DNA from: Escherichia coli
GTDB taxonomy: Bacteria > Pseudomonadota > Gammaproteobacteria > Enterobacterales > Enterobacteriaceae
DNA length: 19,728 nt
NCBI RefSeq assembly: GCF_003334255.1
Contig: NZ_QOWU01000070.1
Reading direction: 5' to 3' (one strand)
Shown piece after piece: positions 6,185 to 11,756 of the stretch. The translations under genes and the position numbers were made by a program. The notes under the pieces are model-generated. The model had not been told where the DNA came from. It saw only the letters and a list, made by a program, of their open reading frames with translations, and ran no database searches. Within the stretch, counting starts at the first letter, position 1. Each line of letters starts with the position of its first letter.

Positions 6185-7147
6185 TCAGTAAGTGATTTTC
6201 TTCAGTTCGTCATCGGAAAGTCCGGTAGCCTGCTTAATCTGCTCCGGCGTCATCCCCATTTTCTGAAGCTGGCACGCAATAGCCAGGGCTTTTTCAAGCG
6301 CTCCTTCCATGCGTCCTTCCATGCGTCCTTCCATGCGTCCTTCCATCCTGCCTTCCTGGCGACCTTTTTGCTCAAGACGTTCTGCGATAGTCATCAGTTT
6401 ATCCTCATGCTGCGGCAGACGCTCAGCCAGCGCCCGCATAAATTCCGGTGATACAGAGTCCCCTGCGTTAACGATGTAATGAATCAGAACACGCACCTGC
6501 TCGTCTGAAATTTCCACCATGACCTGCGGGAGTTTGTCCAGCAGCTCCATCATGTCACGATGGCGGATATGCTTCATCAGCAGCGTCAGTGCGGCCATCC
6601 GGCGATGGTTCATGATTTCATTGTCATCAACGACAGTGATATCAACCAGCGGAAACGGCTTTGTGTATATTTTAGCCGCAAGTGCCGGATTCTCAAAACA
6701 GTCCAGCCAGTTCATGCTGTACGGGTACGGGCTGCGCTCACCGTGATAGAACAGCACCGGAATCACCAGTGGCAACGTTTTGTGCTGCTCCAGATGTCTC
6801 TGCATCGCCGCCACACTGTAGCGTAACATGCGAAAAGGCATGTACAGATTTTCTGTGCTCTGGTGCTCGATGAGCGTATAAACATAGCCGTCTTCACCCC
6901 CGGTGGTTTTCACGCTCCAGAGGATATCGCTGGCGTACTGATGCAGGTCCGGCTCTACAAAGGTGGCGGGTTCCAGCTTCAGCGTGGACAGGTCGCACAA
7001 CTGCCGGTACTCCGCCGGAAGATGCAGTTCCAGAAAATCTCTGGCGACGTCGGGATTCGCCAGGAACGACCGGAACGCGGCATCATGCGGCGTGGGCGTT
7101 GTGGTGGTTTTCTTCTTACTCACTTTCCCTCCATGAGTTATTATCAC
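6185..7147 (-). CDS. Rpn-family (YhgA-like, PD-(D/E)XK) recombination-promoting nuclease with internal RpnS-like start
   Basis: N-terminus TPHDAAFRSFLANPDVARDFLELHLPAEYRQLCDLSTLKLE and the core ASDILWSV ... YVYTLIEHQS closely parallel E. coli RpnA as I recall it. C-terminal repeat linker and tail are present; an internal ATG at 6392-6394 with SD GAGGA would give a 69-aa C-terminal product. True start may be the GTG at 7121-7123 (SD GGAGGG). Confidence 0.8.
   Translation of the reverse strand: MIITHGGKVSKKKTTTTPTPHDAAFRSFLANPDVARDFLELHLPAEYRQLCDLSTLKLEPATFVEPDLHQYASDILWSVKTTGGEDGYVYTLIEHQSTENLYMPFRMLRYSVAAMQRHLEQHKTLPLVIPVLFYHGERSPYPYSMNWLDCFENPALAAKIYTKPFPLVDITVVDDNEIMNHRRMAALTLLMKHIRHRDMMELLDKLPQVMVEISDEQVRVLIHYIVNAGDSVSPEFMRALAERLPQHEDKLMTIAERLEQKGRQEGRMEGRMEGRMEGRMEGALEKALAIACQLQKMGMTPEQIKQATGLSDDELKKITY
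6302..6349 (-). repeat. In-frame 12-bp tandem repeat (3 perfect + 1 variant unit) encoding (EGRM)n in the Rpn linker
   Basis: Plus-strand unit TCCTTCCATGCG repeated head-to-tail; translates on the minus strand to RMEG repeats (QEGRMEGRMEGRMEGRMEG). Confidence 0.9.
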
Positions 7148-7204
7148 CGGAATTATACGCCCGTGCGGTACGCACCTGCCACGGGCAGAAAGAAGGGAAC
7201 AGAT

Positions 7205-7534
7205 TTACAGTCGTGTATACAGCCCGGTATCCCGGGTAAAAAGCCACTGCAGCTGATCGCAATAAATCCCCTCGTGCTCCGATATCTGCGCTATCCGGGA
7301 ACCCTGTTTGCTGTAAAACGTCACCGTGTAATCATCGGCAAACGTTAATTTGATCCGGACAATATTAATATTATTTTTCGCAAAATATGACGGTAACTGA
7401 AAGCATAAACCGCATTCACCATTATCATCAAAATAAGCCAGATTTTTAGCGCCGGTCATAACAACAAATCGCTGGCTCCCCAGCTGTCCGAGAATTGTTT
7501 GAGCGACATGTTCAGCATAACTCATATTCTTCAT
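7205..7534 (-). CDS. Hypothetical protein, 109 aa
   Basis: ORF in an AT-rich block behind structured element copy 2; weak SD; no recognisable motif. Confidence 0.6.
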   Translation of the reverse strand: MKNMSYAEHVAQTILGQLGSQRFVVMTGAKNLAYFDDNGECGLCFQLPSYFAKNNINIVRIKLTFADDYTVTFYSKQGSRIAQISEHEGIYCDQLQWLFTRDTGLYTRL

Positions 7535-7600
7535 TCTAATATCCTGACGAGAGATATGCCGCAGGAGACACGACTACCTGCGACACTGATAATTGGGGAC

Positions 7601-7918
7601 TCAAGTTCTGTTACGCACAACTGCAAAGAGATATTTTTTCTGGCTTATAACTTTGCATTTTATTAAACGGGCTATTTCCCTGTAGTCTTTATTAAGAGGA
7701 ATATGAATCATGTCCCCGTTCAGTTCATTAAAAACGCACCCTTTTATATATAACGTCTCATTCATGATAAAACCATACATTGAAAAATGCTGATTTTCAT
7801 ACTCTTTACTGATTAAGTGAAAATATCCCTCCAGCAGTTCCTGCGGGGGATGTGGATCAATCATCCAGTTATCACCAATATATGAACATACTTCTGTTAT
7901 CGTTGTCTGAAATGTCAT
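7601..7918 (-). CDS. Hypothetical protein, 105 aa
   Basis: ORF with SD GGGGG 5 nt upstream of the ATG; strongly AT-rich relative to neighbours; no recognisable motif. Confidence 0.65.
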   Translation of the reverse strand: MTFQTTITEVCSYIGDNWMIDPHPPQELLEGYFHLISKEYENQHFSMYGFIMNETLYIKGCVFNELNGDMIHIPLNKDYREIARLIKCKVISQKKYLFAVVRNRT

Positions 7919-7975
7919 GTTACCCCCTGAAGTAAAAACTTATGATGTGAAATGGGGCGTTTCCGCCCCCTGGTA

Positions 7976-8110
7976 TCACATGGCGTAGCCTCTGAGGTGG
8001 TCCAGCCACCAACAGAACTCGTGCCATTCGTCGCCTTTCATTGGCGGAATGCGTGTGGGTTGTCCTTTGACAACCGCATCAGCAAGGGTTACGATTTGTC
8101 TGAGTGACAT
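7976..8110 (-). CDS. Hypothetical small protein, 44 aa (MSLRQIVTLADAVVKGQPTRIPPMKGDEWHEFCWWLDHLRGYAM)
   Basis: ATG at 8108-8110 preceded by AAGGAT; the longer 75-aa ORF in the track would read through the upstream GC hairpin motif. First gene downstream of structured element copy 2. Confidence 0.5.
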   Translation of the reverse strand: MSLRQIVTLADAVVKGQPTRIPPMKGDEWHEFCWWLDHLRGYAM

Positions 8111-8316
8111 AATCAATATCCTTACAAAGGTTGTTGATATCCGTGCAAAGGGGTGTTCCCGCCCCCCTGGCACACCCACTAACCTCCTTTTCCTTCCCGG
8201 CATTCCCTCACGCTGTGCGTGATTTACATCGTTCTCACCTCCTTCACTGGGTTGTTTCTGTTCGCTAAAAAATGGTCAGGTTGTTAAAGAGCGGCACGGT
8301 ATGTTCAGGCATCTTC

Positions 8317-8626
8317 ACAGGAGCGAAGCTCCTTCTGCCGTCCACTTCTTCGGGGTTTCTCCCGCTGTGGACCTTTCCGATGGGGGCCCGTTTACCGCCT
8401 CACGGGACAGCTGTCCGGGGGCGGACGCAAAATTTTTAGCCGGGTTCATGGCTAAAAATTTTGTGGCCGGTGCATCTCACCCTGGACAGATGGAACGGGA
8501 GGGGGTTACGTCTGCCCCCCGGAAAGTCCACAGCGGGAAACAGGCCGCAGGGGTGGCGGCAGGAGGGAGGACTGCTGCGCCATCAGGCGCAGTTTCCTCA
8601 CACACCGTCAGGTGTGCAGGGAGCGC
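8317..8626 (+). promoter_or_regulatory. Structured GC-rich element resembling a single-stranded-DNA promoter (Frpo/ssi type), copy 2
   Basis: Shares blocks with copy 1 (GGAGCGAAGCTCCTTCTGCCGTCC, GTGGACCTTTCCGA, GTCCGGGGGC-GACGCAAAA, CCCGGAAAGTCC, CTGCGCCATCAGGCGCAGT, ACACACCGTCAGGTGTGCAGGGAGCGC). Contains a perfect 14-bp hairpin CAAAATTTTTAGCC / GGCTAAAAATTTTG (8428-8463). Confidence 0.6.
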
Positions 8627-9015
8627 AGGTCACGGCGCGACAGGGGCGGCGCGACCGGAACGGTCGCTGCAAGCCGGGTTTTCACGCATCGGACCGTAGC
8701 GGCAGCCCGAAACCGCGCCAGCGGGTTCGGCGGAGACTGGCGGGTGCGCCAGCAGCTGCCCGTCGGAGTCGGGCCTGACGACCGGATGCCGCCAGGCAGC
8801 CGGGAGCCGAAGTGGGCGCAATAAAAGACAGCCAGAAACGGTGACAGTGTCACGGAATATCACTCCTGTTCCCTGCATACAGCCATACACTACCTTCTGA
8901 CCGGAAAGCCGGGCCGGCAGCGCCGCAGGCGCTGCACCCCGCGTTTCCGGCAGGCGTCAGCCTGCCTGGGGTTTTCGCGCGGGCTGACAGGCGGCCTCCA
9001 CCGCCTGCCCCTGTA

Positions 9016-9207
9016 TCACCTGTTTCTGCTGCCCTGAAGGATGTAGTGACCGCCCAGGAAAACCGCCTGCTGATTCGCCACAAAATCGCAGATTTCATCA
9101 ACAATCTGCGCGGTGGTGAGCGGTTTCTGCCCCATTTCACGACGCCGCGCATTAATCACGGCCCTGTAATTACGCAGAATTTCGCGGGTTTCTGTGCTGA
9201 TATTCAT
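9016..9207 (-). CDS. Hypothetical small protein, 63 aa, translationally coupled to the upstream gene
   Basis: ATG overlaps the stop of the 9204-9626 gene (ATGA). Confidence 0.6.
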   Translation of the reverse strand: MNISTETREILRNYRAVINARRREMGQKPLTTAQIVDEICDFVANQQAVFLGGHYILQGSRNR

Positions 9208-9626
9208 GACATCGTCTCCCCGTCCAGCGCCTGTAACACAACGTCCATTGCTTCGCGTTCCTCCCTGACGAATGCGTCACCGTCGCCCCCGTTCTCACTC
9301 CCGACGGCATACAGGCGCTTCATTTCACTGCCTGCCAGCGCCATCACTTTTTCCAGCATCACCGCCGGGACTGTCACATGACGGCTGGCGCGCTTTTCTT
9401 CCATCAGTTCACGAACAACGTCGTGAACAACGCTGACATCCGCACCATGCTCAAAGGCATCGTCCAGTCGCTGCATGACGGTTTCCAGCTCATCGTCTGA
9501 CAGGTTCCAGTCCTGGGCTATGTGACGCACATCCCCACGGGTCAGCACCACGGCAAAAACGCATTCACTGTCCGGCACGTCTGTATCCAGTACATCGCGG
9601 ATGATTTCTTTAACAGTACAGTACAT
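9204..9626 (-). CDS. Acidic hypothetical protein, 140 aa (possibly DUF1380-like, a family often next to ArdB/KlcA genes)
   Basis: ATG with SD AAGGAGACG; acidic composition; family name from memory only. Confidence 0.65.
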   Translation of the reverse strand: MYCTVKEIIRDVLDTDVPDSECVFAVVLTRGDVRHIAQDWNLSDDELETVMQRLDDAFEHGADVSVVHDVVRELMEEKRASRHVTVPAVMLEKVMALAGSEMKRLYAVGSENGGDGDAFVREEREAMDVVLQALDGETMS

Positions 9627-9672
9627 GTTCTCGTCTCCTTTACAGGGGCGGCATTGCCGCCCCGTCCGTTAA

Positions 9673-10098
9673 TCAGTCAAGTGCAGCGTAAATCGCGTTG
9701 CATTCGGGGTGAAATTCGATGTGGCTCCACAACTGCGCATCGCGCATCCTGTACAGGTGTGTCAACCCTGCATCCCCGCTGTCGTGGTACAGCCACAACT
9801 GGCGGTTAATCACAAGGGAAGTCAAAATGATGCCTGCGGCATCAGCACTCACGGTACGGTCAAACCAGTTTTCACCGTTGACCAGATGAAAACGGTCGCC
9901 ATCCGGCATCATGTAACCGCCACCGTCCGGCAGGCGGATGAAGTGCCAGAATCCGCCTTCATATTCCGGCATCATTTTTTTCGCCAGCGCGTATACAGAC
10001 GCTTCGGCATACAGAAAATCCAGGCCAAACAGGTAAGGCAGAAAAGACAGACGGTCGCACTCTTCAACGTTCAGAGTGACAGGTTTCGCATACTGCAT
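9673..10098 (-). CDS. ArdB/KlcA-family antirestriction-like protein, 141 aa
   Basis: Start MQYAKPVTL with SD GGAGG 6 nt upstream (the track ORF begins earlier at 10179). Motifs FLPYLFG, EGGFWHFIRLPDGGGYMMPDGD and SADAAGIILT match my recollection of the KlcA/ArdB/YfjX family. Confidence 0.7.
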   Translation of the reverse strand: MQYAKPVTLNVEECDRLSFLPYLFGLDFLYAEASVYALAKKMMPEYEGGFWHFIRLPDGGGYMMPDGDRFHLVNGENWFDRTVSADAAGIILTSLVINRQLWLYHDSGDAGLTHLYRMRDAQLWSHIEFHPECNAIYAALD

Positions 10099-10140
10099 GG
10101 GATTTCCTCCGTTGTTCACATATTCCGCGACACCGGGCGG

Positions 10141-10364
10141 TGCCGTGCCTCCATCTTTGCCGGGCCTGCAGGGTTGCAAGGGCGCAAGGGAAGCCGCAGC
10201 CTGACGCGCACGGCTGACGGGAGTTGGAGGGTGAGACCGCGAAATCTGAGCGGGTGAACGACCGGAAAATCACGGCAGACGGGAAGGAGGGACCGGGTGA
10301 CCGCAGCGGTTCACCTTACCTTGCAACCCGCCCGCAGAAGCCCGGCTACGATGGAGGCACGGCA
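10141..10364 (+). promoter_or_regulatory. Long imperfect hairpin (about 225 bp) upstream of the klcA-like operon; possible third ssDNA promoter/ssi element
   Basis: Outer arms TGCCGTGCCTCCATC (10141-10155) and GATGGAGGCACGGCA (10350-10364) are exact reverse complements; inner arms GCCGGGC...GGTTGCAAGG / CCTTGCAACC...GCCCGGC also pair; nested palindromes CGGGTGAACGACCGG and GGTGACCGCAGCGGTTCACC. Confidence 0.5.
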
Positions 10365-10511
10365 CAGCCCGCACACGACGCTGAGGCCACATAACTGAAA
10401 ACCCACAAGGCCATGCCCCGCATGGCCGGGTAAAGCGGAGCCTGCGGCGACATCCTTTTGCTCTTTCCGGGGACCGGCTGGAAAAGGCGGAGATTTTCCC
10501 CGCCAGCGTCA

Positions 10512-10835
10512 TCATTTCCGGATTTTCGCCAGTGCATCCGCCATGCTGCGGATTTCAGTCCGGGCTTCCAGGACCACCTCCCGCAGAATATCCCGGTCAA
10601 ACCAGCGACGGGACGGTTCATCAGGTATACGCAGCACATCGCAGGCCAGCCCACTGGACAGGATATGCTCCACACACTCACTGACCAGATACATTTCCAC
10701 CGACGAAAAACGAGCGCCACGGTTCAGAATGGCATCGAGCACCACGGGCAGATTTTCGTCATCTTCATCAAGCCAGCAGGGGTAATCGCTTTCCTTCACA
10801 ACCAGACGAAAGCGGCGCGTCTGGCGGGTCAGCAA
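10512..10835 (-). CDS. Hypothetical acidic protein, up to 107 aa (start uncertain)
   Basis: ORF with TTG start in the track and no clear SD; contains the acidic stretch [12 protein letters not shown]; real start could be internal. Confidence 0.45.
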
Positions 10836-11114
10836 CGTCTGACCGGTGGTGGTCAGCGCCGCCCGGATACGCGGGCATCTTCTGCCACTTGGTAACAGAT
10901 GCTTCGTACTGCATTGCGCACTGCATCAAGAACTGCCCTGATTTCGTCTTCGGTCAGCCATTCTCCGGCATACGGGAAAAACACCTGTGTTCCGTCTGCC
11001 GGAAGTACCGGCAGCGACTGCCACTGACTGCCGGACAGTACCAGTTCCGCCCCGGTTCCGGTCAGTTTCTGAATGGCGGAGGCCAGGAGCGGCGGCAGTA
11101 CGCCGCCGTGACGG

Positions 11115-11756
11115 TTGATAAGTAACGTCCGGAAAAACTTCAGCGTCATTCTTGAGCGTACGGTACGCGAACTCAACGGCGAGTCCTGCATATCCCTGGA
11201 AGAAGCACCACCGGCAAAACAACAGATTGTCTGTAGTCGCAGTTTTGGTGAACGAATCACAGACAAAGATGCCATGCACCAGGCTGTTGTTCAGTATGCA
11301 GAGCGGGCCGCAGAGAAACTACGTGGGGAGCGTCAGTATTGCCGGCAGGTGACGACATTTGTACGGACATCCCCCTTTGCAGTAAAAGAACCCTGTTACA
11401 GCAATGCCGCTGTGGAAAAGCTTTCATTGCCCACACAGGACAGCCGGGACATTATTGCCGCCGCATGCAGAGCCTTAAACCATGTCTGGCGTGAAGGGTA
11501 CCGCTATATGAAGGCAGGAGTCATGCTGGCTGATTTCACTCCATCGGGTATAGCGCAGCCGGGATTATTTGATGAAATCCAGCCCCGTAAAAACAGTGAA
11601 AAGTTAATGAAAACACTCGATGAACTGAACCAGTCGGGAAAAGGGAAAGTGTGGTTTGCGGGGCGAGGAACCGCCCCTGAATGGCAAATGAAACAGGAAA
11701 TGCTATCGCCTTCGTATACAACACAATGGACTGAGATCCCCATTGCTTCATTCTGA
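11115..11756 (+). pseudogene. impB: impB/umuC/mucB-family error-prone polymerase gene, 3' half only
   Basis: [13 protein letters not shown] ... [11 protein letters not shown] ... TTFVRTSPFA ... PTQDSRDIIAAA ... YMKAGVMLADF ... LFDE ... WQMKQEMLSPSYTT aligns to the C-terminal ~210 residues of MucB/UmuC as I recall them. An in-frame TGA at 11109-11111 and non-homologous sequence upstream show the N-terminal half, and any impA/impC, are missing. Confidence 0.85.

Follow-up and report, generated by a model that had tools for sequence, protein, structure and literature searches.

Intercistronic GC-rich hairpins flanking a conserved 44-codon gene in a putative plasmid leading region of Escherichia coli

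The window analyzed here is a stretch of 19,728 nt from the Escherichia coli contig NZ_QOWU01000070.1 that carries, on its minus strand, an open reading frame (ORF) coding for 44 amino acids (aa; MSLRQIVTLADAVVKGQPTRIPPMKGDEWHEFCWWLDHLRGYAM, 7976..8110) flanked by two GC-rich hairpins. Copy 1 (7945..7981, minus strand) is found at the 3′ end of this ORF, and copy 2 (8143..8173, minus strand), a 31-nt hairpin with the sequence GUGCCAGGGGGGCGGGAACACCCCUUUGCAC, is located in its 5′ leader. The 44-aa ORF is the first cistron after an Frpo-type single-stranded DNA (ssDNA) promoter and is followed by a 105-aa ORF. A sequence-only reading of this DNA had described the two hairpins as a conserved motif repeated upstream of two consecutive genes, 30–40 nt from their start codons, and proposed that such stem-loops between cistrons could be attenuators, elements of RNA processing or stability, or binding sites for a shared regulator. 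Both hairpins were present on the minus strand, both fold, they are more alike than expected by chance, and the next start codon follows after 35 nt (copy 1) and 39 nt (copy 2). The span assigned to them (7954–8170) was right, although the limits listed for the individual copies (7950–7969 and 8149–8169) were off by 1–4 nt. The placement, however, has to be changed. The copies bracket a single gene, and copy 1 belongs to the 3′ end of the 44-aa gene and not to the 5′ end of the 105-aa gene.

The 20-mer of copy 1, CCAGGGGGCGGAAACGCCCC, was an exact match to the minus strand at 7973..7954. Its core stem-loop, GGGGCG-GAAA-CGCCCC (7969..7954), consists of 6 GC pairs and a GAAA loop, begins 6 nt past the stop codon of the 44-aa ORF, and is extended by a lower stem in which AUGUGA (7981..7976) is paired to UCACAU (7950..7945). 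The final Met codon of the ORF and its TGA stop are within the AUGUGA arm. RNA structure prediction, which the sequence-only reading had suggested as a check, gave −22.1 kcal/mol (z −4.2) for copy 1 and −20.2 kcal/mol (z −1.4) for copy 2, and both hairpins were kept when the whole 400-nt region was folded. A GC-rich stem with a tetraloop 6 nt past a stop codon is a feature that copy 1 shares with intrinsic (Rho-independent) terminators, including the leaky ones located between cistrons, and the stem and loop, like those of copy 2, were within the dimensions of this class (at least 5 pairs and a loop of 3–8 nt). The difference resides in the T-tract, defined as at least 5 T in the 8 nt directly after the stem. 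Neither copy in the window has one (the tail of copy 1 is ATTTCACA and that of copy 2 is TTTGCACG), a terminator scan called no site at either of them, and the next cistrons follow within 35–39 nt with no recognisable promoter. In contrast, the orthologous copy-1 hairpins of two relatives, locus L003 (CP027324, 85% identical) and locus L005 (CP056558.1, IncF), read GGGGGCGGTAACGCCCCC followed by TTTTT, and 16/24 loci with a homolog of the small gene had a different GC hairpin with a T-tract within 25 nt after the stop codon, as scored by the stem-plus-T-tract terminator rule. Several of these downstream terminator hairpins have an A-tract in front and look bidirectional.

Homology of the window with L003 extends exactly as far as the 3′ arm of the copy-1 hairpin. 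Beyond this point the window has the 105-aa ORF and L003 has a 159-aa ORF, which indicates that the hairpin belongs to the 44-aa module. Judging from these comparisons, copy 1 appears to be the terminator-type hairpin of the 44-aa gene, with a T5 tract in relatives, and the window hairpin, in which the T-tract is missing, is probably leaky. Read-through at copy 1 can be inferred because the 105-aa gene starts 35 nt further on and there is no recognisable promoter between them.

The 21-mer of copy 2, CCAGGGGGGCGGGAACACCCC, lies on the minus strand at 8170..8150 and ends 39 nt before the ATG at 8110; the 31-nt hairpin ends 32 nt before it. The hairpin folds as GUGCC...GCAC, and its stem has 4–7 GC pairs with one mismatch (C.A). 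All of the loci with a small-gene homolog (24/24), which come from IncX4, IncI2, Klebsiella, Pantoea and other sources, had a hairpin of 9–14 bp that ends 25–34 nt before the ATG, and a T-tract after this hairpin was found in 0/24. The commonest form was GTGATCAGGTTG-N4-6-CAACCTGATCAC; variants were GTGTTC.../...GAACAC, GGTATC.../...GATACC and GCCGGATTG/CAATCCGGC, and the stems in the IncK lineage were GGGGGG, GGGGTG and GGGGCG. The flanks that these loci have in common with the window, GGTGTG on the 5′ side and ATC(A/G)ACAA on the 3′ side, identify the upstream hairpins as positional homologs. When they were aligned, 92.5% of the cells were paired and 9/12 pairs changed on both sides, values that were reached by 0/500 shuffles, and slid controls paired at 25–48%. 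Since three IncK rows were one column out of register in this alignment, the true pairing figure is higher. Among the closer relatives, the copy 2 stem was kept in L002 (GGGGGGG..CCCCCC) and L003 (GGGGUG..CACCCC) despite 5 substitutions within it. A comparison of the window with L002, which is 95% identical, showed that 8/34 differences were concentrated in 27 nt around copy 2 (corrected P ~6e-4) with the stem kept.

The ORFs upstream of the hairpin vary between plasmids, mostly ending from a few nt to ~16 nt before it, while the hairpin stays. These results indicated that the upstream hairpin travels with the small gene. Its stem sequence is swapped wholesale between lineages, its loop length is variable, and the IncX4 palindrome occurs a single time in its 34-kb plasmid, all of which speaks for a folded nucleic acid rather than for a binder that recognises sequence. 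The motif is thus conserved in its structure, with compensatory changes, but not in its primary sequence, and the related plasmids to which the sequence-only reading had looked for a possible refutation contradicted it for the sequence but not for the structure. Its suggestion of intercistronic RNA stem-loops fits this pattern of a maintained fold and a sequence free to vary.

The gene between the hairpins is, judging by its homologs, real and conserved. A tblastn search with the 44-aa ORF found homologs in 1120 PLSDB plasmids from Escherichia, Klebsiella, Salmonella, Pantoea, Erwinia, Yersinia and Providencia, including IncX4, IncI2 and IncX6/7 plasmids and MPF_I Klebsiella plasmids. Scans of genome contigs added 9 further homolog loci and those of viral contigs added 1. 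There was no annotated feature under the match in 56/60 of the homolog rows listed, and sources label the 44-aa product 'hypothetical protein'. The 17 distinct homolog sequences have 10 invariant residues, and the identity across plasmid groups is 41–66%. AlphaFold modeled the protein as a two-helix hairpin (pLDDT 90), and searches against Pfam, NCBIfam, PHROGs, PADLOC, PDB sequences and Foldseek gave no match. The small gene of IncX4, IncX7 and Klebsiella plasmids is located at most ~1 kb from oriT and is directed toward it, an arrangement that follows the logic of the window. Three alternative readings of the DNA around copy 2 were considered and discarded. An N-terminally extended ORF over copy 2 (a 75-aa ORF from 8203, or a GTG start) is not compatible with the fact that conservation begins at M1-S2 and that an in-frame stop immediately precedes the ATG in most homologs. 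A leader peptide across the IncX-type hairpin is interrupted by a stop in the loop in locus L012. A sigma-70 promoter using a TTGACA-like box after the hairpin would have its −10 box, at 17 nt, on the Shine-Dalgarno sequence and the ATG, and the transcript would start within the ORF.

The likeness of the two copies was compared with the chance level. They share 23/27 aligned positions with one gap. When copy 1 was compared with both strands of the whole window, its highest-scoring local match other than itself was copy 2, with a score of 17, while 100 dinucleotide shuffles gave a mean of 12.1 (standard deviation 1.0, maximum 16). The sequence-only reading had proposed a motif search of the whole plasmid; in the window, no copy beyond the two was found with 3 mismatches or fewer. 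The copy-1 tail has an exact inverted match of 12 nt at 9129–9140, which is at chance level, its score of 12 being the shuffle mean. The local score between copy 1 and copy 2 fell from 18 in the window to 14 in L002 and 10 in L003, with a whole-window chance level of ~12, and this drop indicates that the shared motif is lineage-specific.

Related loci differ in whether they contain the 44-aa gene. The plasmid that carries L003 has a second Frpo operon, L030 (NZ_CP027324.1 36564–39866; 1150–1900), with a homologous leader, a single hairpin, GGTGGGCTGAAACGCCC, with the tail TTTTAT, and a 52%-identical homolog of the 105-aa protein, but without the 44-aa gene. The sequence flanking the L030 hairpin on the 3′ side matches its counterpart at copy 1 (5/1000 shuffles) but not the one at copy 2 (351/1000). 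The L030 leader can be aligned with the one located 5′ of copy 2 and includes, at 1382–1447, a 20-codon upstream ORF (uORF) that stops right at the hairpin, where the window has ATG-TAA. On sequence comparison, this pattern is as expected from loss of the 44-aa gene by recombination between direct repeats, or from its insertion with duplication of the hairpin. In L005 there is a remnant (1495–1550), in which the terminator hairpin follows the final ~25 nt of the 44-aa gene. The leaders of F carry GGGGGCTGAAAAC without the 3′ arm; the hairpin is therefore not a universal part of Frpo leaders. As far as these alleles indicate, the hairpin pair would be a local direct repeat that marks an insertion or deletion. 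With respect to the surroundings of these loci, the L005 remnant lies between a 98-aa gene and a 159-aa gene, the former being possibly ygeA-like, to judge by its position after hok, and Rpn-family nuclease genes border both CP027324 operons (L003 and L030).

Copy 2 was also found to be the target of an insertion sequence (IS). In locus L027 (NZ_CP060058.1; 148–163 and 1500–1515, equivalent to ~8151–8163 in the window), IS421, an IS4/IS186-like element, is inserted within copy 2 and accompanied by a target duplication of 13 bp, GGCGGGAACACCC. The IS186 target has been described as GGGG(N6/N7)CCCC (PMC5009759), and both copies resemble the IS186/IS421 targets in being palindromes composed of a G-run, a spacer and a C-run. 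They differ in having a spacer of 8 nt, as counted from the last four Gs. Their use as an IS target is a side effect and not a function of the hairpins. A separate palindrome was seen in the IncX4 plasmid L029 (NZ_CP122596.1), where a near-perfect 42-bp sequence is present in two copies, 863–904 and 27582–27623. One of them, just upstream of ddp1/taxC, is probably the inverted repeat of oriT, and the other lies near the replication gene, at a distance of 7 kb.

The window had an identity of 99.5% to pECOED, a plasmid from E. coli ED1a (IncK2/Z, MOBP, MPF_I), the identity to the ~19.6 kb locus L001 being that over the aligned 1.6 kb, and the region had matches in 12 PLSDB records only. The genes on the minus strand are directed toward nikA (mobA), the relaxase gene, and oriT. 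In plasmids of the I-complex, the DNA upstream of nikA reaches the recipient first. From this layout we infer that the window is part of the leading region and that the plus strand is the transferred template strand. On the minus strand, the klcA-like and DUF1380 genes are followed by the Frpo-like promoter, the leader with its Shine-Dalgarno sequence and ATG-TAA, copy 2, the 44-aa ORF and copy 1, and then by the 105-aa ORF, a third hairpin, a 109-aa ORF, a fourth hairpin and a gene for an Rpn-family nuclease. The section of the window at 8945–11129 has 92% identity to the F leading region; this F-like part comprises a hypothetical gene, a klcA/ardB-like antirestriction gene, a DUF1380 gene and a small ORF.

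The Frpo/ssi element is a ssDNA promoter that was reportedly characterized by Masai and Arai in 1997. The element in the window (8300..8690, plus strand) was identified as a class 1 promoter of this type by its fold and its homology to F. The plus strand at 8300–8600, folded as ssDNA, reached −100.7 kcal/mol (z −12.65), and 8407–8686 is homologous to both F elements, Frpo1 and Frpo2, with the F coordinates taken against PMC9849209. The Frpo-like part of the window had matches in more than 5000 plasmids. Promoters of this kind span ~300 nt, fold below −75 kcal/mol and rebuild −35 and −10 boxes (PMC9849209; PMC12672017), and −75 kcal/mol was the cut-off in the search for ssDNA promoters in pESBL (PMC12672017), a value well surpassed by the fold at 8300–8600. 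The two hairpins share with Frpo/ssi elements the region, the strand logic and the use of hairpin-forming DNA, but, at 16–31 nt and without promoter boxes, they do not belong to this class, whereas their neighbor at 8300–8690 does. The Frpo-type element precedes here small genes that have no assigned function, in place of ssb/psiB. About 130 nt separate it from copy 2, and this leader includes a start-stop mini-ORF (8224..8244, minus strand) with a strong Shine-Dalgarno sequence, AAGGAGGU (also given as AAGGAGGT), followed by ATG-TAA, an arrangement that is kept in L002 and L003.

Downstream of copy 1, the second cistron is the 105-aa ORF (7601..7918, minus strand), for which family searches gave no match, and the third is the 109-aa ORF (7205..7534, minus strand), which matched phrog_9437, a family of unknown function (E 3e-25). 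The third hairpin, GUGUCGCAGG...CCUGCGGCAU (7556..7586, minus strand), lies between these two ORFs, has no T-tract, and is part of a 75-nt intergenic segment that folds at −20.7 kcal/mol (z −2.6). The fourth, GCCCGUG...CACGGGC (7158..7187, minus strand), is located between the 109-aa ORF and the Rpn-family gene and also has no T-tract; its 66-nt segment folds at −16.8 kcal/mol, which is no stronger than shuffled sequence (z −0.6). The hairpin pair is part of a series of four in the operon. GC hairpins were also seen in the corresponding intercistronic gaps of the related operons L003, L005 and L030. Close to the C-terminus of the Rpn-family nuclease ORF (6185–7147, minus strand) a peptide is repeated in tandem, (GRME)x4, which implies a short in-frame tandem repeat in the DNA.

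The explanation that we favor, with a little more than an even chance of being right, is that RNA stem-loops delimit the cistron of the small gene, with a decayed terminator on the 3′ side and, on the 5′ side, a leader element involved in stability, processing or insulation, and that their likeness is a by-product of recombination. Both motifs would be cis-acting stem-loops in a polycistronic leading-region mRNA, placed around the 44-aa first cistron behind the Frpo-type promoter. Copy 1 would be the terminator hairpin of the 44-aa gene, whose U-tract was lost at the junction with the 105-aa module; most polymerases would then read through it, and it could act as a leaky terminator, as a barrier to 3′-exonucleases, or as both. 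Copy 2 would be the lineage-specific G/C-rich form of a 5′-untranslated region (5′-UTR) hairpin that is conserved in structure and precedes every small-gene homolog by ~30 nt. It most likely acts on RNA, and recognition by sequence would be unlikely. The options are protection of the 5′ end of a processed small-gene message, protection of the 3′ end of the upstream message, and insulation of the cistron. The copies would owe their likeness to forming a short direct repeat, which recombination or template switching between two G-run/C-run hairpins created or homogenised, and this direct repeat may also mark the gain or loss of the 44-aa gene. Stem-loops that stabilise mRNA from an intercistronic or 5′-terminal position include the ompA 5′ hairpin, the repetitive extragenic palindrome (REP) of malE-malF and the hairpins of the puf operon. 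The hairpins described here are like them in lacking a U-tract, in being located between cistrons, in the conservation of structure and not of sequence, and in the fixed distance to the start codon. They differ in that they are not multi-copy REP elements; with two copies in 19.7 kb and a unique IncX4 counterpart in its plasmid, they do not behave as REP or as bacterial interspersed mosaic elements (BIMEs). Their place between cistrons and their structural conservation are compatible with a stabiliser role. Rfam had no relevant family at the gathering threshold for the window, or at a permissive E ≤5 for the window and nine loci, and no mention of the hairpins was found in the papers on leading regions that were consulted.

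Several considerations weigh against this explanation. The functional statements, RNA versus DNA level and stability versus attenuation, come from anatomy and comparison. The upstream hairpins sampled amount to 18 distinct sequences out of 1120 plasmids, many of them closely related. An inverted repeat that serves as a palindromic protein site would covary in the same manner, and copy 2 alone is not unusually stable (z −1.4). Action at the RNA level is not proven over the ssDNA level by energies and wobble pairs, as the folding energies are equal on both strands and the non-Watson-Crick cases disagree: a U.G pair in locus L018 favors the sense strand, and the C.A mismatch of the window copy 2 in RNA is G.T on the plus strand.

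A related possibility is that the hairpins are attenuators controlled by translation or by a factor, which would stop or pause RNA polymerase in the leader and between cistrons and be melted by translation of the leader uORF or of the preceding cistron, thereby setting the ratio of the cistrons. The facts that copy 1 is a true terminator in relatives, that the L030 uORF stops immediately 5′ of a hairpin followed by TTTTAT and that, by subtraction of distances, the stop of the upstream ORF precedes the hairpin by ~2–16 nt in most of the loci where such an ORF was called are in agreement with this mechanism. Nevertheless, we consider it unlikely, as the upstream hairpins lack a T-tract in every one of the 24 loci, the uORF of the window lineage is just ATG-TAA located 60 nt from copy 2, the ORF spanning the hairpin is interrupted in L012, and no conserved alternative (anti-terminator) pairing was seen; by these features the hairpins do not match leader-peptide or riboswitch attenuators. 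The hairpins could instead act in the incoming ssDNA T-strand, releasing RNA from the template, punctuating the coating by SSB, or serving as pause or priming points in the synthesis of the complementary strand. The operon sits behind a ssDNA promoter, the small-gene module adjoins oriT in IncX and Klebsiella plasmids, all four intercistronic gaps have GC hairpins, and the template strand folds equally well, even better in the case of the window copy 2 (G.T on the plus strand in place of C.A). However, the T-tracts after the downstream hairpins are strand-specific and in the mRNA sense, no IncX or IncI2 ssDNA promoter is known beside the module, and the energy calculated with DNA parameters for the 44-nt segment around copy 2 is −7 to −8 kcal/mol (−9 to −14 at other loci). 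Furthermore, a preprint (10.1101/2025.04.03.647016) saw no positional enrichment of palindromes in leading regions. A ssDNA role has, in our estimation, a low probability, and so has the more general proposal that intercistronic hairpins are the punctuation of genes expressed from the incoming single strand, as a new cis-acting RNA or ssDNA element that determines the early expression of the widespread 44-aa protein, or are joints for the exchange of leading-region modules by hairpin-directed recombination, possibly via Rpn nucleases.

In another scenario the hairpins would be cassette boundaries, at which hairpin-directed recombination shuffles the small-gene modules of the leading region in a process that is attC-like or tied to the adjacent Rpn-family nucleases. 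Junctions were located at hairpins in three comparisons (window-L003 at the copy 1 3′ arm, the hybrid hairpin of L030 and the L005 remnant), and Rpn-family genes border the modules in the window (via the 99.5% match L001), L002, L003, L027 and L030. As in integron attC cassettes, an imperfect hairpin is 3′ of a small promoterless ORF, the units are in tandem behind one promoter, and the allele that has no ORF keeps one hairpin. The hairpins are nonetheless not attC sites: there are no conserved R/L core sites (RYYYAAC / GTTRRRY) or extrahelical bases visible in the sequence examined, and no integrase is annotated in L001. The junctions are a handful, three in all, terminators are natural module ends under selection alone, a direct repeat of 20–25 nt can be deleted by ordinary slippage, and in the modules of IncX and IncI2 the 5′ hairpin is unrelated to the 3′ one, which makes this scenario quite improbable. 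Very little probability corresponds to the common site of one regulator over both downstream genes, be it a duplex-DNA operator or the target of an RNA-binding protein. Two similar inverted repeats at similar distances from two start codons suggest such a site, and the symmetric covariation is compatible with a dimeric binder. Yet the shared sequence is not kept in relatives with 95% and 85% identity, the stems of the orthologous upstream hairpins differ completely in sequence (GTGATCAGGTTG, GCCGGATTG, GGGGGG) and are replaced wholesale between lineages, their loops range from 4 to 7 nt, the palindrome is unique in the IncX4 plasmid, with one site per plasmid, and the window has no third copy at 3 mismatches or fewer. 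This part of the sequence-only reading was thus not sustained. A total lack of function, with the hairpins as terminator leftovers and chance G-run/C-run palindromes, is just as remote. Although the T-tract of copy 1 is gone, copy 2 has a mismatch and a non-significant z-score, and the plasmid CP060058 persists with IS421 inside copy 2, a hairpin was present in 24/24 loci at a fixed distance, 9/12 pairs are compensated next to a small protein that is 41–66% identical, and the stem was kept within a substitution hot spot.

Ordinary punctuation of the mRNA on both sides of a conserved small gene explains the pair well enough, and no new kind of regulator was revealed. What is new, and modest, is a module found in many plasmids that consists of a structurally conserved 5′-UTR hairpin and a small ORF. 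When a plasmid arrives in a new host, its leading region is the DNA that acts first, and such regions are being actively studied for their anti-defence genes and ssDNA promoters. In this context, a compact portable unit (5′ hairpin, 44-codon gene and terminator) was defined in at least 1120 enterobacterial plasmids, including those with IncX4 and IncI2 backbones, and its gene has no annotated feature in most of the sampled records. The intercistronic hairpins of this Frpo-driven operon are conserved by structure, and the comparison of alleles provides a concrete case of gene gain or loss at a direct repeat formed by hairpins. Should the hairpins prove to tune early expression, mutational tests could target them easily.

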